DNA of 64,000 bases from Candidatus Binatia bacterium (GCA_963666315.2 CAXXHG010000046.1:96001-160000), one strand, 5' to 3'; shown: positions 7,226 to 18,737, counted from the stretch's first letter. The notes: a model not told the origin generated them from the sequence alone. A program made the numbers and translations.

Positions 7226-9009
7226 GTAGACAAAACCGGTAGCTCAATAAAGGACGGATGCTCCTCAGTGTGATGCACCACATTGGTGGCGATGTGAATG
7301 TCAGCCTGCGTGTCATTCGCGAGCACTGCGTTACCACTATTTGTGTTACGCGCACGGCGGGGGAAGTTACTGCTGGTGACATCCACTTGCAAACGGCTGT
7401 CTGCCGGAAAAGTGTGATGAATATCAGCCAGGTGAATCTGGACTTGGTAAACTTGATCAGGTTCTAAATGCTGCGGCTTCGTCGTGGCGTTGCGATACAT
7501 CGCCCGCACCACACCATCCATGAGCAGCAGGGCGCATCCGTCCGGTTGCAGCTCAATCAATTTGGCAATGAAATCCGTATCGCGGCAATTCGATTGGACG
7601 TGGAGCGTGACAGAGACCGCTCCTGCTATCGTCATATCTTCATCCAAAACCTCACTCCGGTAGCTCAAACCATAGTTCGGCAAGACTTGCACTTGGCGTT
7701 GATCCTGAGGCCCACTCGCGATCAACATATTGCGACCGCCGAGCGTTGGGATGGGACGGTTGGGGTCATATATATAGCTTCTCTCGTCGCCGCCTGGACC
7801 GTCAGCGCTGAGGCGTCCGTCACCAGTCAGATACAGCCGCTGCTGGACAGTCCCCAAAGGCGGCCACTGGTCAGCGTGGCGCCAATCATTGGCCACGTAG
7901 TTTTTTTGATCTGCGGCCCAGGCGCGCGGCGCATAGTATACTGCCGGCTCATCCATGATTGCGGACGGTAGTCCCTTGAGCCAGTAATCAAACCACTCAA
8001 AGTAGGGATCACGCGGCCAGAAATTGCGCTCATACACAAAGTGATGGCTGTTTGGCCCGATCCATAGCCGCTGGTTTCCGACTCGGGACTGGATCTCGGT
8101 AAAGGCGGCTAACACGCTGGTTTGGAAAATATCGAACCAGGTCGTAACGTGAAAACCTGGGACATTGATCGTCGCGCGGAAGTTGTGACGGGCGCGAAAA
8201 TAGTCAGGAGCGGGATGACTAATAATTTCGTCAAGATAAGGCTGCCATACAGAGAAGTCGGGATACCCGCTCAGGGGTAAACGCATCCATTCGTCCGTAT
8301 CGATGAAGGGCGGGTCTGCATGTCGGGCAGCATCAAGCGCCGTATAGCGCACGTTCGCCGAAGCGGCTGCCGTGTCCAGTTCTTGTTTACTCAGTCCGTG
8401 CTGCTGCAGCATAGCCTCACGGTGCGAACGTGAAAGACCCGGAATATTCCGGGCTACCCACAGCCATAGCCGCTCCATCTGGATGGATTGGCCCTCATAG
8501 ACCACGTCGTCATAGATACTCGATCCACCCACTTGGGTGAAAAACGCGCGTACACTGGGATGACACTGCGAGGCCGCGGCAAGCGCCGTGGTCGCAGCGG
8601 CGGATGATCCTGACAGTCCGACGTGTTGATTCGACCAGGGCTCACTCGCTATCCATTCGAGGGTGTCGTATCCGTCTACTGCATCGTCGCCATACACATG
8701 GTCTACTCCTTCAGAGCCATAGCGTCCGCGTGTGTCTTGGTAGACTGCCGCATTGCCGCGGCGCACGATCTCGCGCCAGCCACGTAGGAGTGAGCCTCGC
8801 AGAGGGGCCTTTGCATCCGGCAGCCAGCCTTTCGTGCAGTCGGTTACGTTCTGGCCTTCAGGTGAGGTGATGCCGTAGGGCGTGCGTTGCACAATGACCG
8901 GATAACGAGGTCCGCCGCGTTCGGGCAGGAAGACAAACGTATTCAGCCGTGCGCCATCACGCATAGGCAGCATCACTTGGAAACACCGCGCCCCGTCAAC
9001 AATTTCCAT
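7222..9009 (-). CDS. CocE/NonD family hydrolase
   Basis: MRDGARL, RTPYG, QDTRGRYGSEG, SSNFPR; nucleophile motif reads GSSA rather than the usual GxSY. Confidence 0.9.
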   Translation of the reverse strand: MEIVDGARCFQVMLPMRDGARLNTFVFLPERGGPRYPVIVQRTPYGITSPEGQNVTDCTKGWLPDAKAPLRGSLLRGWREIVRRGNAAVYQDTRGRYGSEGVDHVYGDDAVDGYDTLEWIASEPWSNQHVGLSGSSAAATTALAAASQCHPSVRAFFTQVGGSSIYDDVVYEGQSIQMERLWLWVARNIPGLSRSHREAMLQQHGLSKQELDTAAASANVRYTALDAARHADPPFIDTDEWMRLPLSGYPDFSVWQPYLDEIISHPAPDYFRARHNFRATINVPGFHVTTWFDIFQTSVLAAFTEIQSRVGNQRLWIGPNSHHFVYERNFWPRDPYFEWFDYWLKGLPSAIMDEPAVYYAPRAWAADQKNYVANDWRHADQWPPLGTVQQRLYLTGDGRLSADGPGGDERSYIYDPNRPIPTLGGRNMLIASGPQDQRQVQVLPNYGLSYRSEVLDEDMTIAGAVSVTLHVQSNCRDTDFIAKLIELQPDGCALLLMDGVVRAMYRNATTKPQHLEPDQVYQVQIHLADIHHTFPADSRLQVDVTSSNFPRRARNTNSGNAVLANDTQADIHIATNVVHHTEEHPSFIELPVLST

Positions 9010-9216
9010 AATTGACCTTTCTCGTGAAGCAAACGTCCGTCAATCCTACGGAGTGGGGGCTGTGAATCTAGAGAATCCAGTACAGTATGGACCAAGGCAA
9101 GCTGGTTGAGGGCGTTAGTCGGTATCTTCGCTGCTCTGGGCAGGTCGCGGTGCAACCGGCTCCGGATTTAGAGCTCGGTATTTCGGTGGACTCCACGGGT
9201 TATCTCACAACGACAT

Positions 9217-9467
9217 CTACAACTGATCGTAATGTCCACCGTTTGCAAAGATATAAATATATCGATCGTCGAATTTATAAATGACACGATCTTTCTGGCT
9301 CATTCGGCGGAACGATTATGGTTCAGGGGCTCTGGTTTTCCAATTCCACTACTGGGGTCGCCACGCAACATCTCTTTCAATATACGGCACAGTGCTTTAT
9401 GAAGCTTTTTGTCTTTTGCTCTGAGGTCTTCGTAAATGGCCCAGGTGTTTCCTTCAAACACCAGTGA
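9217..9467 (-). pseudogene. yoeB: YoeB/Txe toxin body, separated from its ATG (17493) by the integrated element, with an additional internal deletion/frameshift
   Basis: SLVFEGNTWAIYEDLRAKDKKLHKALCRILKEMLRGDPSSGIGKPEPLNHN / RRMSQKDRVIYKFDDRYIYIFANGGHYDQL*; GKPEPL and terminal GHY motifs of YoeB; the segment expected before RR is missing. Confidence 0.85.
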
Positions 9468-9468
9468 T
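9445..9468. repeat. att core, left copy
   Basis: GTGTTTCCTTCAAACACCAGTGAT; contains inverted repeat GTGTTT-N5-AAACAC. Confidence 0.85.
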
Positions 9469-9500
9469 ACGCTTTAAAAATAGGCTGAAACCACTGTAAC

Positions 9501-9770
9501 TTAGTGAATAGAAATAACTTTCTCCGTCTGTCCCAAAACCGGCTTCTCAGGGGTGTCGTGAAAATTCGCGGGACTTCTTCCTGGGAATCGGCGTTCCATC
9601 TGCTCCATTGCCCCTCTTTTGTGGTCTGGCGACAGGTGCGCGTACCGCATGGTCATGTTTATATCAGCATGTCCCATGAGTTCCTGCACGGTGCGAATAT
9701 CAACGCCGCTCATAACGAGCCGGCTAGCAAAGGTGTGTCGCAGGACATGGGGGCCAATCGGGGCAATCAC
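9501..9770 (-). pseudogene. Tyrosine recombinase/integrase, C-terminal remnant
   Basis: HVLRHTFAS...LMGH...TMRYAH catalytic motifs; N-terminal part absent. Confidence 0.88.
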
Positions 9771-9954
9771 ACGCTTGCTATAGGACTGCTTGATCGATCC
9801 GAACTTGATTACCGATGCGTTGCGGCGACAGTGGCTCCATATTCGCCCTGTACGGCACGATCTCGATGCGACCCATAACCGATTCGTTCCTCGACACGCG
9901 CGCAACGGAAATGATCGAGCCGATAGCACCAGACATCGCGCGAGTTCATTCAGA

Positions 9955-10644
9955 TTATTTGACCGTGCCTAATCGTGACCCGGACTGCTCCATGACGGCC
10001 ACCCGCGCCGCCAGTTCCTGGATCATCCTATCTTGCTCAATCGTGTACAGCGTCAATTCCTCCACCTTGGCCAACAGCTTCATCTGCATGTCCGTCATAT
10101 TCACGCCCGTCTCGCTTATCTCCGCTGCTGACGGAACGTTGGGCAGGTGTTTTTCGTGTGCAACGAATGTAGCCAGTTCTGGCAGTGGCATAAGCAGATA
10201 GTCGGGCTCGAAGACGTAGTCAGGCACGTTCAGGACCGTACTTCCGGAGATGAAGCTGCCCTCGGCACGGATGTGCCCGTTGACGTGAAGCTCGTCCGTA
10301 GGGTTGGTCGTGCCGATGCCAATGCGGCCCTGCGCCTGGTCAAAGGTCATGACTGCGATACTGCCAGCACGCTGCAGAAGCAAATCTTGCGACGAATTCC
10401 CCTCTTGTACAAATTGCCACTGCATCGTATTGCCTGTGGAGAACCGCATGGAAAGATCTGCCCCTGTCGAGGCACGGTCAAACTTCAGGAATCCGTTAGA
10501 CGCCTCCATCAATATCTGCCCATTGACATGCAGTTTCACCTCTGGGTTCGCCGTCCCAATCCCGACGTTGCCCCCACTATCAAGATCGAGCTGCGCAAAG
10601 ACAGGGGAGGCTACAAGTAAGAACAATACAGCTGTAATCAACAT
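9955..10644 (-). CDS. Secreted protein with GNVGIGT repeats and C-terminal coiled-coil domain (tail-fibre/adhesin-like)
   Basis: Signal peptide; GNVGIGT.NP and GRIGIGT.NP; VPDYVF...KHLPNVPSA...KLLAKVEELTLY. Confidence 0.75.
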   Translation of the reverse strand: MLITAVLFLLVASPVFAQLDLDSGGNVGIGTANPEVKLHVNGQILMEASNGFLKFDRASTGADLSMRFSTGNTMQWQFVQEGNSSQDLLLQRAGSIAVMTFDQAQGRIGIGTTNPTDELHVNGHIRAEGSFISGSTVLNVPDYVFEPDYLLMPLPELATFVAHEKHLPNVPSAAEISETGVNMTDMQMKLLAKVEELTLYTIEQDRMIQELAARVAVMEQSGSRLGTVK

Positions 10645-10852
10645 AACTGACTCCTTATAGGTTAGTTTGTTGTCTCGCTACTTAACACGAAAACAGAGAA
10701 CTTTCCATTTCCGCCCGTAGCGCCTACGTGCAAAGGCAAGACGGCTTGTGACGTTTGCGCACATCACTCACGACCTCGCCCACGTCACGAGGCCCTGAGT
10801 AGTTTAAGCAGGCGGAACAAATGGAGGCCGCGCAGAAGAAAGCCAAACGGAA

Positions 10853-10882
10853 ACCGCCCGGGGAGGAGGGGCCCCGGGCGGT
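10853..10882 (-). terminator. Putative intrinsic terminator
   Basis: ACCGCCCGGGG/CCCCGGGCGGT stem with a T-rich tail on the minus strand, downstream of the 10936 gene. Confidence 0.55.
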
Positions 10883-10935
10883 GAGTCGGCGCGCCTCTGC
10901 AGAGTCTGCGCCTTCACAGTGTAAACACGGTTGGG

Positions 10936-11780
10936 CTAGGGAACAAGTTCAAGCGTTGTCTCAGTGACATTCCCCCCTCCCCCGCTGACCGTGGACGCCC
11001 ACCAGCTCGCCGTGTTTCCCCATCCTCCGTTGACCGAGGACTGCCACCCGCTCGCCTCATTTAGATGTCCGCCGCTGACCGAGGATGATTTCCCACTCGC
11101 TGTGTTTTGGTCGCCTCCGCTGACCGAGGACTGCCACCCGCTCGCCGTGTTGCCGCCTCCTCCGCTCACCGAGGACCCGATCCCGCTCGCCGTGTTGCCG
11201 TATCCTCCGCTCACCGTGGAGTCGTACCCACTCGCCGTGTTCCAGCCGCCTCCGCTCACTGTGGCATGGTCCAATGTCGCCGTGTTTTGCCGTCCTCCGC
11301 TCACCGTGGACGCGAAACCGCTCGCGACATTAACTTGGCCCCCGATTATTGCGGCACCGAACCCGGTGATCGTGTTACTGTCGCCAGTCACAAGACCGCT
11401 GCGATTCGTGTAGGTGTGGTACGCCCCAACAATCACATTATGGGAGCCCGTCTTTTCGCTGCCATCTTTGTGGTCTTCATTATAGCCGACAATAAGATTG
11501 CCGAGGCCATTTGGCACCGTGTTGTATTGTGTGGAATCCCCGGTCCCGTCTTGTACATGCAAATTACACCCATCAACGTACAGGCCATTCCCGGCTTGAT
11601 AGAGGCAGTCCATCGCGTCTTGTTTGGTCTCCACCTCGGCCTTTAACGCTGTCACTTCCGATTGCAGCGCTCCGAACCGAGCCTCAAGGTTTTCCTGGCT
11701 CTGCCGTCGTGAGCCGCCACGTTCCCGGCGCTACCCATCATGGTTATCATCGCTATCGCCGACAGAGTTCGCTTCATCAT
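10936..11780 (-). pseudogene. Secreted repeat protein (14-aa NTASGxxSSVSGG repeats, adhesin-head/beta-helix-like), frameshifted near 11700
   Basis: RBS AGGAGG + ATG 11780 signal peptide in one frame; ENLEARFGALQSEVTALK and about 9 tandem 42-bp repeats in another frame. Confidence 0.75.
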
Positions 11781-11847
11781 GGGGTCCTCCTGATACCGCC
11801 CAGTAAATTGCTGTGTGTCACAGTGTGGGCGGGATACGAAGGAATAG

Positions 11848-11864
11848 AGCACAACCCGTGCCAA
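11848..11864 (-). promoter_or_regulatory. Putative sigma-54 (-24/-12) promoter
   Basis: TTGGCACGGGTTGTGCT on minus strand about 70 bp upstream of ATG 11780; GG and GC correctly spaced. Confidence 0.55.
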
Positions 11865-12115
11865 CCGCTCAGGAATGAGCACGCTCTTTCTGTATTTCAA
11901 GTTATTTCAATATGTTATAGCGTCAAAGCACGGTGAAGGTAGGCAGACGGGTCCCCAGCGGTCTCATCCATCGAGACCGTTCTGATATATCGCTTTGATG
12001 AGTTATGGCGAAACGATATGGCCGCTTGAAGTCGCCAATCAGCGCGCCGGTAGGGGTATTTCGATAGTCGTGTGGGGAGCCGGCGGCCTCCACTGCCAAG
12101 ACGCCCGAGTCCTCA

Positions 12116-12745
12116 TTGAGGTGCGACTCGCCAAAGTATCTAGAAAAGAAGAAGGCGAAATATCATTTGGACAGACAGTCCCGAAGAGCACAATGTCTCA
12201 CCGCCGGTTCTAAGAACCAGGAAGTGTGTTTCCGTACTGACAGGTTAGGATTGAACATCAACTGTTCAGGCGTCGGCTATGGGCGGATTTGTAGCCACCT
12301 TCCTGGCCTGGACGGCTATCTCCGGGGATTTACCGTCAATGAGAGACGACTCAAGCTGTCGCCCGAGCATCAGGCAATGTGTCGTGGGTGGCTACGGCTC
12401 GCAAATGACGAGAACGAGTCGATGCATTGGCTATCGATCTACGACGTGATCATCAAAAAATTGCGCGGTGGAAAGGCGATTCCGGAGCTGGTTTTTTCAA
12501 TGGCACACTTTCCTGCTCACTGGTCAGCCCGGATTTACGAAGACATTTATCCGGGCCGGAAGGAGAAAAGCGCCGCGGAGAAGAGCGGTATGGGCAGAAT
12601 GCCACTGTACCTGTGCGCTTTGTGCGACCTAGCTGAGGAGGGTAAGGTGGAAGGGATACTCGATCACGAAGGAGGATACCGTTGGCGCCGCATCTTACAG
12701 CGAGACCAAAGGCGACCCGAAGTCGTCAAGGGTGAACTCACCTAG
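12116..12745 (+). CDS. Hypothetical protein
   Basis: 209-aa ORF, start uncertain, no recognised motif. Confidence 0.35.
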   Translation: MRCDSPKYLEKKKAKYHLDRQSRRAQCLTAGSKNQEVCFRTDRLGLNINCSGVGYGRICSHLPGLDGYLRGFTVNERRLKLSPEHQAMCRGWLRLANDENESMHWLSIYDVIIKKLRGGKAIPELVFSMAHFPAHWSARIYEDIYPGRKEKSAAEKSGMGRMPLYLCALCDLAEEGKVEGILDHEGGYRWRRILQRDQRRPEVVKGELT

Positions 12746-12808
12746 AAACGTGGGCTTGTTTTGAAGAGCGTAGGTATGGAAGGGAACCGCATGGAAGATC
12801 GATTGTTC

Positions 12809-12862
12809 CACATCATGCACATCATGCACATCATGCACATCATGCACATCATGCACATCATG
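12809..12862. repeat. Perfect 9-bp tandem repeat (CACATCATG)x6
   Basis: Directly visible. Confidence 0.95.
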
Positions 12863-13017
12863 CATGAAAGAAAGTGAATGGAGGTTAGAGTTTTGACGGT
12901 GCGGATACTCGGAAATATTTGGAAACGAACAATGCCTAACAAGAAGAAAAGAGGAGAGAGCATTATGAAGTGGGAATGGACGCTGAAGTCAGCATGTACA
13001 TTCTCGTGTCTGAGTAA

Positions 13018-13200
13018 TCACGCAGCCGACTGACACAGACTATTTTCCAAAATATGGCGGATGGTCGAGGCGTACCATGTTCGCCCGTTCTTCGTCGGCA
13101 CCTTGCGGGTGTTGAGTGTCCCAGCAATCTGCCGCAAGGTATGCCCCTCCTGGCGTTGTTGCCGTATCCATTCAACCGTCTTTAGCTGGCCAGCACCAGC
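13018..13200 (-). pseudogene. Serine recombinase C-terminal (recombinase domain) fragment
   Basis: RQEGHTLRQIAGTLNTRKVPTKNGRTWYASTIRHIL. Confidence 0.7.
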
Positions 13201-13228
13201 CCTGAATTGACGGTTCGCCTGCAAGGAC

Positions 13229-13801
13229 TCATTGGGTCTTCTGTCGCCATTCCCGTGCCATTTTCTGGGCCTCTGCCACCTGCGCAGGGCGGATCTTTGC
13301 TTCGACAGCAGCCCGACGTTTAACTGCCTGGCTGCGATCATATCCGGTTAAGTGCGCCGCGGCGAGATTATACCACTTGTGTGCCTGCACATAATCCTGC
13401 ACTACGCCCCGGCCGTTGTCGTACATGACTCCGAGGTTGTTCTGCGCCGAGGCCTGTCCTTGATCGGCGGCGAGCCGGTACCACTCCACGGCTGCCTCAT
13501 AATCCTGCACCACGCCCTGGCCGTTGTCGTACATGACTCCGAGGCTGTGCTGCGCCCCGGCCTGTCCTTGATCGGCGGCGAGTCGGAGCCACTTCCCGGC
13601 TGCCTCATAATCCTGCACCACGTCTTGACCGGCGTCGTACATGCCTCCGAGGTTGCTCTGCGCCTCGGAGGCACCTCGGGTGGCTTGCGCTCGAAGCGCG
13701 GCAATGTCATCAGCCTGATCACCGCAGCCCTGCGCCAGCATCAGGCTAAGCAGCAGCAGGAAAACCATACCCATTCGTCCTTGGTTCTGAAGATATTGCA
13801 T
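13229..13801 (-). CDS. Sel1-repeat (TPR-like) lipoprotein
   Basis: Lipobox-like LAQGC; three AQxxLGxMYxxGxGVxQDY repeats; AHKWYNLAAA. Confidence 0.9.
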   Translation of the reverse strand: MQYLQNQGRMGMVFLLLLSLMLAQGCGDQADDIAALRAQATRGASEAQSNLGGMYDAGQDVVQDYEAAGKWLRLAADQGQAGAQHSLGVMYDNGQGVVQDYEAAVEWYRLAADQGQASAQNNLGVMYDNGRGVVQDYVQAHKWYNLAAAHLTGYDRSQAVKRRAAVEAKIRPAQVAEAQKMAREWRQKTQ

Positions 13802-13852
13802 TTCTTACAGAGGCCTGCTCAAGGATACACAGCAGTCCATGTTGTCAAGCTG

Positions 13853-14206
13853 TTACATACACCGGCCGGTCACAAAATCGACCCCGCGGCCCTGACAGCG
13901 CATAATCGCTTGCCCCGGGTCCTGGCGGGGGAGCGAAAACGGCGGCGCCACATCATACGGACTCACTTGCCGTCCCTGGGATCCAGAACAATTCCTGGTC
14001 GCAAAATCGACCCCCAGACCGGCCGCACCACAGCTTGCCACCAGATCGCCATCCGTGGGGCTGGCGTGAGCGGGAGACACACCGGCGGGGGCGGAGTGAG
14101 CGGCGGTCCTCAGCGATCCGGTCCACAGTGAAAAATTACAAGACGAGCCCAACAGCAGCACTGGCCCACAAAGGATGGTTCCGAAGATGACACGCCTGCT
14201 CAGCAT
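13853..14206 (-). CDS. Small exported protein with a duplicated C...GVDF.T..C motif
   Basis: RBS GGAGGGG before ATG 14206; hydrophobic N-terminus ending LLLGSSC; CGAAGLGVDFATRNC and CQGRGVDFVTGRC. Confidence 0.5.
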   Translation of the reverse strand: MLSRRVIFGTILCGPVLLLGSSCNFSLWTGSLRTAAHSAPAGVSPAHASPTDGDLVASCGAAGLGVDFATRNCSGSQGRQVSPYDVAPPFSLPRQDPGQAIMRCQGRGVDFVTGRCM

Positions 14207-14368
14207 GCCCCTCCGTGCTCCACACTTTTTCCCGCTCACTCCTGACACCGCCGGATACTGGCCTGAGCTTTTATGCGGCCCGGGCGTACTGCCATGTACT
14301 CCTCCATCTACGTGAAACGACGTTCTCTCAGCCTCAACTACTTAACCCGAGGAAATATCGGTCACTGT

Positions 14369-14995
14369 CTACGTCTCAGCGAACTCAATCCTCAACGGCG
14401 TGCATTGCTGACCATTGGGTCTCTGGCCATCGATTTCTATATCATACGGACACGCCGAGACTGCAACTAAGCAGTCCATCAGAGCCCTGAGTGCAATATA
14501 TTCACCCGCTTGGGTTGCCGCAGGCCGACCATCAACGGACCCGTCGGCCCGCACGCGGGTATATTGGAACAGGTTAATCGGATCCGGCACATCAAGATAA
14601 CCAAGACCGTAAGGCTCCACGGCCAGGGTGAGATTGTCTCGACAATTACGATGGTTGACAGCTCCGGCAGCCACATATAAGGCGCTGCTGCACGGAGCAA
14701 AAAGGGCGTCGTGTACACCGTTCGCCTGATCCTCAACAATCTCGAACATGGGGTGCTGGAGGTTTGAGTAGAATTTACTGTTGACCGTAAAATGCATGGA
14801 ACCACTACCAATCAAAGTATTGAAGTTCACGGTTTCACCCGTAGAGAGTTTTTCTGCCAGGCTATGGAGGTGAAAACATACGAAATCGCAGATCTGCTGG
14901 CCCTCCACGTCGATAATCCGAATCGTTTCACCTTGCCGGACCACACAGGCTCCCCCTTCGGTTGCCGGAATAAGAATGTCTCGTTTGTCTGTCAT
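14369..14995 (-). CDS. DUF1989 / urea carboxylase-associated family protein
   Basis: IIDVEGQQICDF, HDALFAPC, NCRDNL, PDPINLF, AVSACP. Confidence 0.9.
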   Translation of the reverse strand: MTDKRDILIPATEGGACVVRQGETIRIIDVEGQQICDFVCFHLHSLAEKLSTGETVNFNTLIGSGSMHFTVNSKFYSNLQHPMFEIVEDQANGVHDALFAPCSSALYVAAGAVNHRNCRDNLTLAVEPYGLGYLDVPDPINLFQYTRVRADGSVDGRPAATQAGEYIALRALMDCLVAVSACPYDIEIDGQRPNGQQCTPLRIEFAET

Positions 14996-15170
14996 GGCTC
15001 AATCCTCCTGCCCCTTTTATTTTTTGCTGACGGTTCCCGATCACTGTCGAAAAGTTTTCATCTTTACGCAACCCCGGTCTTTTCCTTGACACTCGGCGCA
15101 AGACAGAGCTAGGGTCCGTCTCAAGGGGAGAGCTCACCTGAGTATCTCGCGAAAGGAGGAGGAGAAGACC

Positions 15171-16388
15171 ATGACTAGGGGAATGACCAAAAGTGGTTTT
15201 ATGGCAGCCCAGCTGCCGTTGTCCCAAGCCTCGACATTACCATCTCACTGTTACACATCACGCGAGTTTTATGAGCGAGAAGTCGAGCACATCTTCTTGA
15301 AAGAGTGGCTGTGCACCGGGCGGGTAGATCAGGTGGAGAAACCTGGAGATTTTTTTACATTGACTCTATTAGGAGAACGACTGATCGTCGTGCGCGATGA
15401 GGAAAATCAGGTCCGGGTATTATCGAATGTCTGCCGCCATCGCGCAACGCAAGTCGTCGAAGGACAGGGGAATCGGCGCACTTTTGAGTGTCCCTACCAT
15501 GGTTGGACGTACTCCTTGAAAGGAGAACTCATTGGCGCGCCTGAGATGCAACGGACCGACAACTTTGACAAAAACCAGTGTCAATTAGCCTCGCCCCGGG
15601 TCGAGACGTGGGAGGGGTTCATCTTTGTCAATTTTGATCAGCAGGCACAGCCGCTTGGGCCCAAGCTCACTCCCCTCTCCCAGCGATTGGAGCACTATCA
15701 TCTCAGTGAGATGCGGACCGTCAAAACGTTGGTGTATGAGAGCAACTGGAACTGGAAAATTATGGTTGAGAACTATATGGAGGCCTACCACGTTCTTGGC
15801 CTGCATAAGGGACCGCACGACGTGATGCCCGTCCATTCCGTCCATGATGCTTCGCCTCAGGCGTACAATATTACCAACACGGCGTATAACGGCGTGTTTG
15901 GGGTCATCTGGGGGGATTTTGCTACACCGGGCGCAACGTTTTATTCGCCGGGGGTGACGGGAGCCGAGTCCGGTAAGACCGAGTGGTTGCCTTCTCCTTT
16001 CCCGTTGATTGAGAGCTTATCCGCCGAAGAACGCCAGCGCGGCGACTTCGTTAATATCTATCCAACGCATCTCTTTACGCCGCTGCCTGACGGCATGTTT
16101 TACGGACAGATCTTGCCGCAGGCGGCCGACCGGATTACGTGGAGTCTGACACTGTGCTTTCCTCCGGCAGCCATGGAGATGCCAGACTTTGAGCAACAGC
16201 TCGAACAGGCGGTCGAAGGGCTCGAGTACATAAATAAGCAGGATATGTGGGCGTGTGCGTCGGTCCAGCAGGGGTTAGCTTCGCGCATGGTGCGGTCTGG
16301 ACGCTACTGCCACTTGGAAGAATGCATCCATCAGCTGGCTCAATACGTTATGGGCCGGATGCAAGACGAAGGACGTCTCACCCAATGA
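15171..16388 (+). CDS. Rieske non-heme iron oxygenase alpha subunit (choline/carnitine monooxygenase-like)
   Basis: CRH...CPYH Rieske motif; NWKIMVENYMEAYHVLGLH; QD..C..VQ.G. Confidence 0.92.
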   Translation: MTRGMTKSGFMAAQLPLSQASTLPSHCYTSREFYEREVEHIFLKEWLCTGRVDQVEKPGDFFTLTLLGERLIVVRDEENQVRVLSNVCRHRATQVVEGQGNRRTFECPYHGWTYSLKGELIGAPEMQRTDNFDKNQCQLASPRVETWEGFIFVNFDQQAQPLGPKLTPLSQRLEHYHLSEMRTVKTLVYESNWNWKIMVENYMEAYHVLGLHKGPHDVMPVHSVHDASPQAYNITNTAYNGVFGVIWGDFATPGATFYSPGVTGAESGKTEWLPSPFPLIESLSAEERQRGDFVNIYPTHLFTPLPDGMFYGQILPQAADRITWSLTLCFPPAAMEMPDFEQQLEQAVEGLEYINKQDMWACASVQQGLASRMVRSGRYCHLEECIHQLAQYVMGRMQDEGRLTQ

Positions 16389-16718
16389 ACCGCACGGCGG
16401 GCAGCACGTGCTTTTACCACTACCTTTTCCGCCTTTTGGAATAATGCTTCACTTTGCTGCCGGCGCGCCAGTTCCTCTTTGATGCTGTCAATATTCTGTC
16501 TGACAGCACCCGCTAGCGCACGCGGGAGCCGCTTCATTAGCAGGGGGTCCCAATGGCGGAGAAAAGAAAAATCATGAGTAGTCAGAGGGTCAACGCGTCG
16601 GCCCTGTGACTGCCCTTGGTGACTGTGAAGTGGCTGGGTGTGCTTTGCGGCGTTTGGAAATAAGAAAAGGTGGGAATTGATGGCAATTGATTTTTCACAG
16701 ACCCTCCCGTGTCCTCCG

Positions 16719-17060
16719 CTACTCGCACTTTTTCAGTCCCTTCTGAATAAGTCCGGACAAATTCGCCAGGGGTCTTCGTCCAGTTGCCGCAACGGTGCCC
16801 GCGAGTGCCTCGTAACATGTTGCGGTGTGATTTCCACAGGGAGGAATATGGAGCGCGGTAGCGTGTCCTTCGCGTAGGAGAACTTCATTAACAACAGTTG
16901 CGCCGACAATCACATAAGCCAGTGTACGGCCATATCGATCTTTCGCATTCTCCTCACAGTCATCAAGCGTGACGGTCTTTCCTTCAACAAGGGCGACATT
17001 ACGTGCTGTTGCCGCACCGAATCCCTTGTCTCCACGCTCAGGGGTATTGATAACCTGGAA
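16719..17060 (-). pseudogene. Thermonuclease (SNase) family fragment, N-terminus missing
   Basis: INTPE, KDRYGRTLAYV, VNEVLLREGHA. Confidence 0.75.
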
Positions 17061-17464
17061 TACCGCAGCGCGTTCTCGTAAACTCGACGCCCAAGCACGG
17101 TTTCTGGAAGAGAGAGTACCGGACGTCATTAGCCCTCTAGAAAGTCTCACCGCTGACGTTTGCCGTGTGGCATACCACGCTGCCAGGTATAGGTTTGCCT
17201 TTTGTCAGGTCGAGTCTGCCAGATAAACTTGCGGGGACGAGGAAGCGGCACCTTGAAGCGGAGGGGCTGAGTCAGAATACGCCGGTCACCTCAAGCCTCG
17301 CCAGGAGTCTCCGTTTTACTCTCGCGCCTGTTGTGAAAATTCGCGGGACTTTCACGGGAATTCGGGGGGAATGGAGAGGAATGGGGAGTAGTCACCGTGG
17401 CCCGTAACCCCTGTAGAATTAAAGCTTTTTGCCTCTTTTCGGGGGGTTACGAAACTCACGGTTT

Positions 17465-17488
17465 GTGTTTCCTTCAAACACCAGTGAT
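17465..17488. repeat. att core, right copy (contains yefM stop and yoeB codons 2-10)
   Basis: Identical to 9445-9468; preceded on the minus strand by the yoeB ATG at 17493. Confidence 0.85.
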
Positions 17489-17746
17489 CTCATTGAGTTC
17501 CTCAGGGGTAGGTGAGTATCCAGAACCCTTAACGTGGGTACGCAGGGGACTGGCAATCTGCCTCATCAGACTGCTATTCTGCAAAACATAGAGCGTTTCT
17601 TCCTCCCGCTCCCAGTCCTCCGCAACCACCACCACAAAATCGTCACCACCACGTCGTGTAACCTTGAGTGGAAGGTGCCGGTCCACTATTTGTTCAACAA
17701 AGGATTTTAAATGTTCTCTAAATTTGTTTACACTGACACTATCTAC
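17474..17746 (-). CDS. yefM: YefM/Phd antitoxin (expected start codon reads GTA; may be impaired)
   Basis: DSVSVNKFREHLKSFVEQIV...LKVTRR...EDWEREEETLYVLQNSSLM; TGTAC/TGTACA operator-like motif at 17764-17780. Confidence 0.8.
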   Translation of the reverse strand, partial: VDSVSVNKFREHLKSFVEQIVDRHLPLKVTRRGGDDFVVVVAEDWEREEETLYVLQNSSLMRQIASPLRTHVKGSGYSPTPEELNEITGV

Positions 17747-17912
17747 CTTGGCAGCCTTTTTGATGTACTGAATTTGTGTACATACTAGTCTGAGCACTTG
17801 GACAAAGCAATGCAACGTACCGGATGTGTCCGCATAGGTCGCACAGGCCACGCGACGATCATCTCATTTCGTCGGCTGTCGAAAAAATGCGGAGATCTTA
17901 TATTCTCAGGAC

Positions 17913-18737
17913 ATGAACGAACTGCAATCGCAATTCCGTAAAGACGGCGTCGTCTTCATTCAAGGCGCGCTCGACCGCAACACGCTGAAACTAGCCGAGG
18001 CAGCCTTTGACTGGACCTTCAATAATCCGGGGCCTGGCGCTGGGGACCTTCTCATCGGCACACCGGGTACGTTTTATCAGGACCAGGCGAACCCGGAGTG
18101 TTTCGATGCCTACCGTGAACTCTTACAGGACACCTGCATCCCTGATCTCGTAGCCGGGCTACAGGCGAGTGATAACGTATGGTTCTTGTATGAGCAGATC
18201 TGGTTTAAGGACGGTGGCAATACACGGCGTACACCCTGGCATCAGGATCTCCCCTATCTCCCCGTCGAGGGCGATGATCTCGGCGTTTTGTGGACGAACT
18301 TGGATCCGGTCACGCAGGATACGTCACTGGAACTCGTCCAAGGCTCGCACCGTGGCCCGCTATTTAATCCCACGGCCTTTAACCCGGACGACGTAAGCGC
18401 TGCTTTGTTCGACGAGGGAGTCCTGCCGCCCTTGCCGGATATCGAGGCGGCACCTCACGAGTGGCCCATCGTCTCGTGGGCGATGCAGCCCGGCGATGTC
18501 ATCATCTTCCATCCCGCCATGCTGCACGGTGGCGCGCCGACCTACGCAGGCCAGCGTCGCCGGACGCTGTCCGTCCGTTTTTTCGGCGATCATACTTTCT
18601 GCTCGGACCTACCCCACAAAGGCTTAGCCGACGTCGACGGACTCAAGCACGGCGGCGACCTGCATCCGCTGAAGAAAATGGCTACCGTTGCGCCAGGGAC
18701 GCCGTTTCGTCATCCCGATTTTCCCAAACTCAGATAA
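17913..18737 (+). CDS. Phytanoyl-CoA dioxygenase (PhyH) family Fe(II)/2OG oxygenase
   Basis: TPWHQD, GSH, PGDVIIFH...HG, RR. Confidence 0.92.
   Translation: MNELQSQFRKDGVVFIQGALDRNTLKLAEAAFDWTFNNPGPGAGDLLIGTPGTFYQDQANPECFDAYRELLQDTCIPDLVAGLQASDNVWFLYEQIWFKDGGNTRRTPWHQDLPYLPVEGDDLGVLWTNLDPVTQDTSLELVQGSHRGPLFNPTAFNPDDVSAALFDEGVLPPLPDIEAAPHEWPIVSWAMQPGDVIIFHPAMLHGGAPTYAGQRRRTLSVRFFGDHTFCSDLPHKGLADVDGLKHGGDLHPLKKMATVAPGTPFRHPDFPKLR

Follow-up and report, generated by a model that had tools for sequence, protein, structure and literature searches.

The window analysed here is a 64,000-nt stretch of the draft genome of a Candidatus Binatia bacterium (GCA_963666315.2 CAXXHG010000046.1:96001-160000). 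Its positions 9445-17488 are read, with a probability of roughly 0.78, as the fossil of a ~8.0-kb integrative element of a satellite-like tyrosine-integrase family. That the att core lies within the yefM/yoeB overlap of a toxin-antitoxin (TA) cassette, and that a site-specific integrative element splits the toxin gene yoeB, as an earlier note on this DNA had proposed, is supported by a direct repeat and by colinear alignment of the toxin gene.

The element is bounded by an exact 24-bp direct repeat, GTGTTTCCTTCAAACACCAGTGAT (Table 1), which contains the inverted repeat GTGTTT-N5-AAACAC. With up to 3 mismatches allowed, this sequence had two matches in the window, a number reached by 0 of 100 shuffles, and with up to 2 mismatches just two across the whole 4.99-Mb, 47-contig genome. 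The ~8 kb between the copies part yefM and the first 10 yoeB codons, on the right, from the remaining yoeB, on the left; on the repeat, its internal inverted repeat and this arrangement the earlier note was correct in every particular. A Pfam match also bore out the tyrosine-integrase C-terminus it had placed just inside the left repeat, the integrase stop codon lying 32 nt inside attL, and the paralogous copies are built alike.

The antitoxin gene scored 48.2 bits against PF02604 (cut-off 29.8) and belongs to that family; it ends ...ITGV-TGA, with the stop inside the right repeat. The yoeB ATG (17493-17491, minus strand) stands 20 nt ahead of the yefM stop. After codon 10 the P arm of the element adds an unrelated 14-codon tail, so the gene is interrupted with no replacement sequence. 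On the other side, the yoeB N-part (9300-9461, minus strand) matched YoeB_toxin PF06769 (E 1e-7, 31.9 bits, cut-off 27), and the C-terminal piece aligned with residues 60-89 of intact homologues and formed a separate tblastn segment for the YoeB of a related locus, L025. By alignment the three pieces are colinear with intact YoeB homologues of 89-90 aa; a contiguous YoeB open reading frame (ORF) of ~85-90 aa is absent, the gene being left in three by the 8-kb insertion and a 13-nt deletion. The deletion was read from window DNA against L025 (5 nt vs 18 nt) and from a gap in the protein alignment. The yefM start column (17744-17746) reads GTA, where all 4 homologues in a DNA alignment have ATG or GTG; no usable start codon stands at the family position, and an in-frame upstream GTG exists beyond an operator-like palindrome. 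Palindromes of the same TGTAC...GTACA type are present in L025 and in three further related loci (L050, L051 and L052), and their operator role is one which we assume from E. coli yefM-yoeB. The whole TA cassette looks like a relic.

The region of the yefM stop and yoeB start (17470-17484) makes up a stem of 5 bp around a loop of 7 nt; the two sides of the stem covary among TA homologues (GTG..CAC in the window; GTA..TAC in L025, L051 and L052). Judged from these sequences, the overlap palindrome may be a conserved operon feature, perhaps an mRNA hairpin of this TA subfamily.

The ends of the element were aligned with those of two paralogous copies in the same genome, on contigs C27 and C14. 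The P arm is conserved over ~150 bp and the P' arm, which carries the integrase 3' end, is also conserved, with a variable middle. For the P arm, identity of the window was 90% with C27:49019-49163 and 78% with C14:58648-58781; for the P' arm it was 85% with C27:62045-62312 and 74% with C14. The distance from integrase stop to core was 39 nt in the window and in C27 (counted by hand), and C14 aligned in register. GTGAAAATTCGCGGGAC occurs on both arms in direct orientation. Of its 9 copies in the genome, 2 fall within integrase tails and 7 within far ends, and they are candidates for arm-type binding sites. The cores share the geometry (G/T)TGTT-N7-(A/G)ACA(C/A), and the core of a further copy, in a tRNA-Ser gene on contig C24, is the anticodon stem-loop CCGAT-TTTCAAG-ACCGG, likewise 5-7-5. 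In shape, then, the TA overlap equals the tRNA sites used by related elements. Identity blocks at att sites of the family are laid out as 3-5 bp, a 7-bp spacer and 11-12 bp, to which the 24 bp of the window conform. Because of the repeat length, the matched P/P' ends and the common core geometry, site-specific integration is the only reasonable reading. The crossover position inside the 24 bp is uncertain, as the C27 and C14 copies each carry one mismatch within the putative 7-bp overlap.

The P arm also holds an inverted repeat, CGTAACCCC...GGGGTTACG (17372-17450), which is kept in the C27 and C14 copies, with a T-G wobble in C14; an Rfam search of 8500-18500 at E <= 1 returned no family, this repeat included. 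An in-register similarity between 9402-9417 and 17422-17437 was considered as a yoeB relic within attP and was dropped, as the stretch is P arm aligned with C27 and C14 and partly conserved there.

About 100 of ~370 integrase residues are kept, corresponding to residues 271-370 of the 370-aa paralogue in C27, to which the remnant is 74-79% identical. It retains the HVLRHTF motif and the tyrosine region RYAHL but has lost the first Arg, the Lys and the complete core-binding domain, so the catalytic R..K..HxxR..H/W..Y set of PF00589 is incomplete. The remnant derives from the tyrosine recombinase family but cannot be an active member, and no N-terminal integrase piece was found in the whole genome. 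The earlier note had called the copy non-functional with a second yoeB lesion, which agrees with an integrase cut at 9782 and the 13-nt deletion. The C27 integrase might conceivably act in trans on the ends of the window element, given identical half-sites and arms of 85-90% identity.

Integrases of this family (E <= 1e-30) were found in 13 of 55 genomes of one bacterial family (f1), the source genome included. At class level 11 of 401 genomes carried them, all in f1 (the source genome and 10 of 54 others there; 0 of 346 elsewhere). Ten of the 24 integrase loci adjoin tRNA genes (Ser x4, SeC x3, Ala x3), and others adjoin the 3' end of folD, the 3' end of a VOC-family gene, a nuoI-like start and a pncC-like start (two further species). 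A YefM/YoeB match was obtained at the window's own locus and at 0 of the 23 other loci, which tells against the integrase clade targeting TA operons that the earlier note had proposed. Intact homologues at the same junction, which it had suggested looking for, were at none of these 23 loci, and the nearest paralogue sits at a GNAT 3' end. Among species-representative genomes the nearest relative of the remnant is that C27 paralogue (79% over the remnant). The protein database held two full-length integrases, P0001 (364 aa, 88% over the remnant) and P0002 (86%), with a very similar tail, encoded on short contigs of 3257 and 2382 nt. Among viral contigs the remnant reached <=58% identity, and the degenerate core had 0 matches.

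YefM was detected (E <= 1e-5) in 13 of 81 genomes (the source genome and 80 relatives), and the best match outside the source genome was only 35% identical, which marks the cassette as accessory. Aquatic bacteria commonly carry the YoeB subfamily, with 392 protein matches at E <= 1e-6, the best at 84%, from sources including Methylomonas, Colwellia and Shewanella; none of the best 120 of these 392 came from 3257-nt or 2382-nt contigs like those of P0001 and P0002. Of four related TA loci, three are intact and uninterrupted with the same overlap layout: L025 from a genome collection (YefM 70%), and L051 (70%) and L052 (61%) from a metagenome collection. The fourth, L050 (metagenome, 1680-2248), has a yefM of 72% identity and no yoeB, and similarity stops just past ATGAGATCAC, at the edge of the window core. 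It was considered as another case of the site being used and rejected, as its 550 downstream nt, to the contig end, had no blastn match in the source genome.

In the two closest species the genes flanking the insertion still lie close together, ~200 bp apart in G009 and ~930 bp apart in G024, and at this syntenic spot neither has the TA cassette or the element; the window from ~9052 to 17873 is therefore an insertion at a variable spot. The flanks encode a CocE/NonD-type hydrolase and a PhyH dioxygenase (loci L085, G024:C5, and L086, G009:C173). The gap in G024 holds a different 200-aa gene, and that in the source genome holds the TA cassette and the element.

Assembled contigs of four public runs (Logan) were compared with the region; such contigs cannot show absence. 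The left junction is bridged by the X22 contig (8800-9533, 0 mismatches), and the 9782 breakpoint by X19 (9439-10607) and X22 (9536-10424), again with 0 mismatches. An X20 joint, 12093->17328, resembles paralogous copies or another strain. An X19 joint, 9024->9423 (depth 8, 21 other letters between, SNPs nearby), may come from another strain with most of the yoeB remainder deleted, or from a paralogous copy.

Several points weigh against the proposed fossil at the yefM/yoeB overlap. It is a single instance of the element at such a site, and its attP was reconstructed solely from attL and attR, with the one-mismatch overlaps of C27 and C14 noted above. A search of the other 48 family genomes did not recover the TA subfamily of the window (best YefM 35%), and it is therefore puzzling that an attP should be pre-adapted to it. 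The right junction had no bridge among the contig pieces listed for the four runs, and neither an empty site with identical core nor a circular attP was seen in the genome, the run contigs or the viral contigs. The order of arrival cannot be demonstrated either, TA first and element later, or both jointly.

An origin of the repeat, or of a 928-bp duplicate at 9782-10709, in a chimeric assembly join is hardly credible. In its favour, the assembly is a draft of 47 contigs with 92% completeness, the duplicate is 100% identical to another contig, and the right junction lacks a bridge among the listed pieces. Against it, attL and the 9782 breakpoint are spanned without mismatch by contigs from two other studies, the ends form a matched P/P' pair like that of the C27 copy, and assembly k-mers are usually longer than a 24-bp repeat. 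Another reading is regulated gene integrity: the toxin would be off while the element is integrated and be rebuilt by regulated excision, either as a switch, which the earlier note had offered beside an excision penalty, or as addiction to the element. No yoeB replacement is carried, the frame runs on from the junction into the remainder, and the formal layout is that of the gene-interrupting elements discussed in PMC10111431. A working excision and an intact rejoined gene are nevertheless missing: the integrase is truncated, yoeB has its 13-nt deletion and yefM has lost its start. No 9445->17465 joint across the element was among those listed for the four runs, whose contigs cannot show absence. 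Excision would moreover restore the toxin together with its antitoxin, and hence would carry no penalty. This reading is very improbable.

Whether the site was chosen by a lineage or struck by chance is a closer matter. An element with another normal site may have integrated once, by accident, at a look-alike palindrome; the single occurrence, the ease with which the family changes sites (8 or more kinds of target) and the generic TGTT-N7-AACA shape of the target agree with this. By the rules of lambda-type recombination summarised in PMC10111431, an off-target event would need identity in the overlap only, but the identity here extends over 24 bp, 12 of them past the spacer, where a crossover would not create it. 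Such an accident, and with it the tolerated secondary site of the earlier note, which the family's usual att layout of the 24-bp block makes doubtful, is considered unlikely. A dedicated TA-targeting lineage, with the yefM/yoeB overlap as its primary attB and the window as a dead copy of an active kind, is a possible reading, though less likely than not. It is in keeping with the 24/24-bp identity in the usual layout, the close full-length integrases P0001 and P0002, the abundance of the YoeB subfamily and the 5-7-5 palindrome kept across the overlaps of homologues. Against it stand the 23 other integrase loci, none at yefM/yoeB, the three unoccupied TA loci of four (L050 lacks yoeB but lacks element DNA too), the empty result for the degenerate core in viral contigs, and the restriction of the integrase family to f1, where the TA is not otherwise found. 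In a rather doubtful extension, a lineage perhaps including P0001 and P0002 would have its primary landing site in the yefM/yoeB overlap of a TA cassette that is widespread and moves horizontally. The 5-7-5 hairpin there would copy the geometry of the tRNA anticodon stem-loop targeted by its relatives, and entry of the element would disarm the toxin and spare the antitoxin. The evidence favours a pre-adapted site over an accident, with a single occurrence known.

For the fossil element itself, the following course of events is proposed, the order of which we infer. The element would have entered by site-specific recombination at the 5-7-5 palindrome, which sits in the 20-nt yefM/yoeB overlap of the accessory cassette. 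Its attP would have held the 24 bp identical to the target beforehand, since the 12 bp past the spacer would not be created by crossover (lambda-type recombination, as treated in section 19 of PMC10111431). As the yefM stop codon falls inside the core, yefM would have been left whole, and yoeB would have been cut after codon 10; with no replacement supplied, the toxin gene lost its promoter, ribosome-binding site (RBS) and ATG. Once the toxin was silenced, neither cassette nor element would have been kept intact and all parts would have decayed: yoeB would have lost 13 nt, the yefM start would have become GTA, a rearrangement with the duplicated 928-bp stretch would have cut the integrase to its last ~100 residues, and the replication and packaging genes of the intact paralogue would have been lost. 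The loss of the toxin was probably a side effect and not a design.

Table 1. Coordinates of the element, the TA cassette and the cargo in the window, with the paralogous copies of the same genome
Feature	Position	Strand	Description
yoeB C-terminal piece	9217-9309	minus	RRMSQKDRVIYKFDDRYIYIFANGGHYDQL, then stop; out of frame with the N-part
yoeB middle part, codons ~11-57	9300-9444	minus	Pfam YoeB_toxin, E 1e-7; without promoter, RBS or ATG
yoeB 13-nt deletion	~9310-9314	minus	LSGLW(S) codons gone, frame shifted
attL, 24-bp identity block	9445-9468	none	putative core GTGTT-TCCTTCA-AACAC
P' arm	9469-9600		39-nt variable spacer, then conserved integrase 3' end; GTGAAAATTCGCGGGAC at 9558-9574
Tyrosine-integrase remnant	9501-9782	minus	Pfam Phage_integrase PF00589, positions 123-170 of 172, E 4e-17
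928-bp stretch	9782-10709	none	100% identity to C7:95999-96926 (blastn); terminates integrase remnant
Scrambled cargo region	10710-17325	none	Pfam
Repeat protein	10936-11655		cargo
Serine-recombinase fragment	13018-13341		cargo, Pfam
Sel1 protein	13229-13801		cargo, Pfam
DUF1989	14369-14995		cargo, Pfam
Rieske oxygenase	15171-16388		cargo, Pfam
SNase	16719-17150		cargo, Pfam
P arm (far end)	17326-17464		GTGAAAATTCGCGGGAC at 17333-17349; inverted repeat CGTAACCCC...GGGGTTACG
yoeB start	17419-17493	minus	10 native codons MRSLVFEGNT, on into P-arm DNA; 24-aa ORF, alignment with homologues
attR, 24-bp identity block	17465-17488		minus strand carries yefM stop codon, 17474-17476
yefM antitoxin gene	17474-17746	minus	Pfam PhdYeFM_antitox PF02604, E 9e-13; body intact
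Palindrome ATGTAC-N9-GTACAT	17763-17783	none	upstream of yefM; likely operator
C27 copy			~13 kb; 3' end of GNAT gene; repeat ~75 bp, imperfect
C27 core			(G/T)TGTT-GAAGT(T/A)G-AACA(A/G)
C24 copy			integrase remnant; tRNA-Ser(tga); 47-bp repeat, anticodon loop to tRNA 5' end
C14 copy			integrase remnant; directly upstream of pncC/CinA-like start; ~21-bp repeat, one mismatch
C14 core			TTGTT-TCT(G/A)GAA-GACAA

The interior of the window copy is degraded. Pfam searches found no primase, terminase, replication or packaging genes in it, and for several cargo segments paralogues of 70-95% identity lie elsewhere in the genome, at further copies of the element. The 928-bp stretch encodes a 229-aa secreted protein (ORF 9955-10644, minus strand) with no Pfam match; its identity between the window and contig C7 indicates a very recent duplication or gene conversion, and a partial 94% copy lies at C7:91821-91975. 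The cargo also contains 45-nt periodic repeats at 10979-11383, encoding a GNTASG-type repeat protein (Pfam LbR_Ice_bind, UspA1_rep), and 108-nt Sel1 repeats at 13359-13682, both with paralogues at the C19, C24 and C27 element copies. A 9-bp tandem repeat, CACATCATG, is present in ~7 copies at 12800-12871, the minus strand reading HDV repeats.

The C27 copy has the only full integrase of the genome (370 aa), together with a Prim-Pol/PriCT/D5_N/DUF5906 primase-helicase and a Terminase_4 small terminase; the phage-satellite set of integrase, primase-helicase and packaging gene is thus complete there, and the window copy has none of the three in working form. The element, at ~3020-16350 of L003 (G000:C27:46001-65000, G000 being the source genome), also encodes a Sel1 protein and an S8 peptidase. 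Its far-end repeat includes the last codons of an integrase gene, which suggests that the C27 site may have been occupied earlier. In the C24 copy (L006) the 5' half of tRNA-Ser(tga) is duplicated (C24:113150-113300 and 117560-117700). The integrase stop is followed closely, on the same strand, by the intact tRNA, a layout repeated in L031 and L040, so that the C24 element supplies the tRNA 5' half and upstream region, a less usual arrangement.

Compared with known systems, the family shares with P4-like and PICI-like satellites and islands a tyrosine integrase beside one att site, conserved attP arms with a motif on both sides and a 7-bp spacer between inverted half-sites; its relatives share the primase-helicase and small terminase (in the intact paralogue) and the tRNA-Ser, tRNA-SeC and tRNA-Ala targets. 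Unlike those satellites, the window copy targets a TA-operon overlap and does not restore the gene it cuts, and the family is confined to one bacterial family. Elements that interrupt a gene and regulate its integrity include skin/sigK, SPbeta/spsM and phi10403S/comK. HE-PICIs in prophage late genes are gene-interrupting elements as well, according to a passage of PMC10111431. As in such elements, the window has a coding gene split with no replacement, and precise excision would rejoin the frame; in contrast to them, it has no working integrase, its split gene is further lesioned, there is no sign of excision, and a rejoined TA operon would bring no obvious regulatory gain. Gene order, stop/start overlap, upstream TGTAC palindrome and Pfam matches agree with type II YefM-YoeB systems (Phd/YefM antitoxin, Txe/YoeB toxin), whereas here an 8-kb split and a frameshift disrupt the toxin gene and the antitoxin start column holds no start codon. 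A full-text literature search, covering the main article texts, brought up no account of an element integrated in a TA overlap.

The finding is a single fossil with an unusual target, and as such it does not demonstrate a new regulatory principle. It offers a clean natural example of landing in a TA operon at the only sort of place where insertion is harmless, the toxin being cut and the antitoxin spared, after which both selfish elements rot. If the hairpin of the TA overlap were indeed a primary landing site, one mobile element would exploit and neutralise another selfish element. For the family as a whole, the analysis describes satellite-like elements of one bacterial family with a modular attP, in which the arms are conserved and ~45 bp are swapped between targets. 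These targets span tRNA anticodon loops, gene ends and promoters, and the family therefore lends itself to studies of how an integrase moves to a new target.

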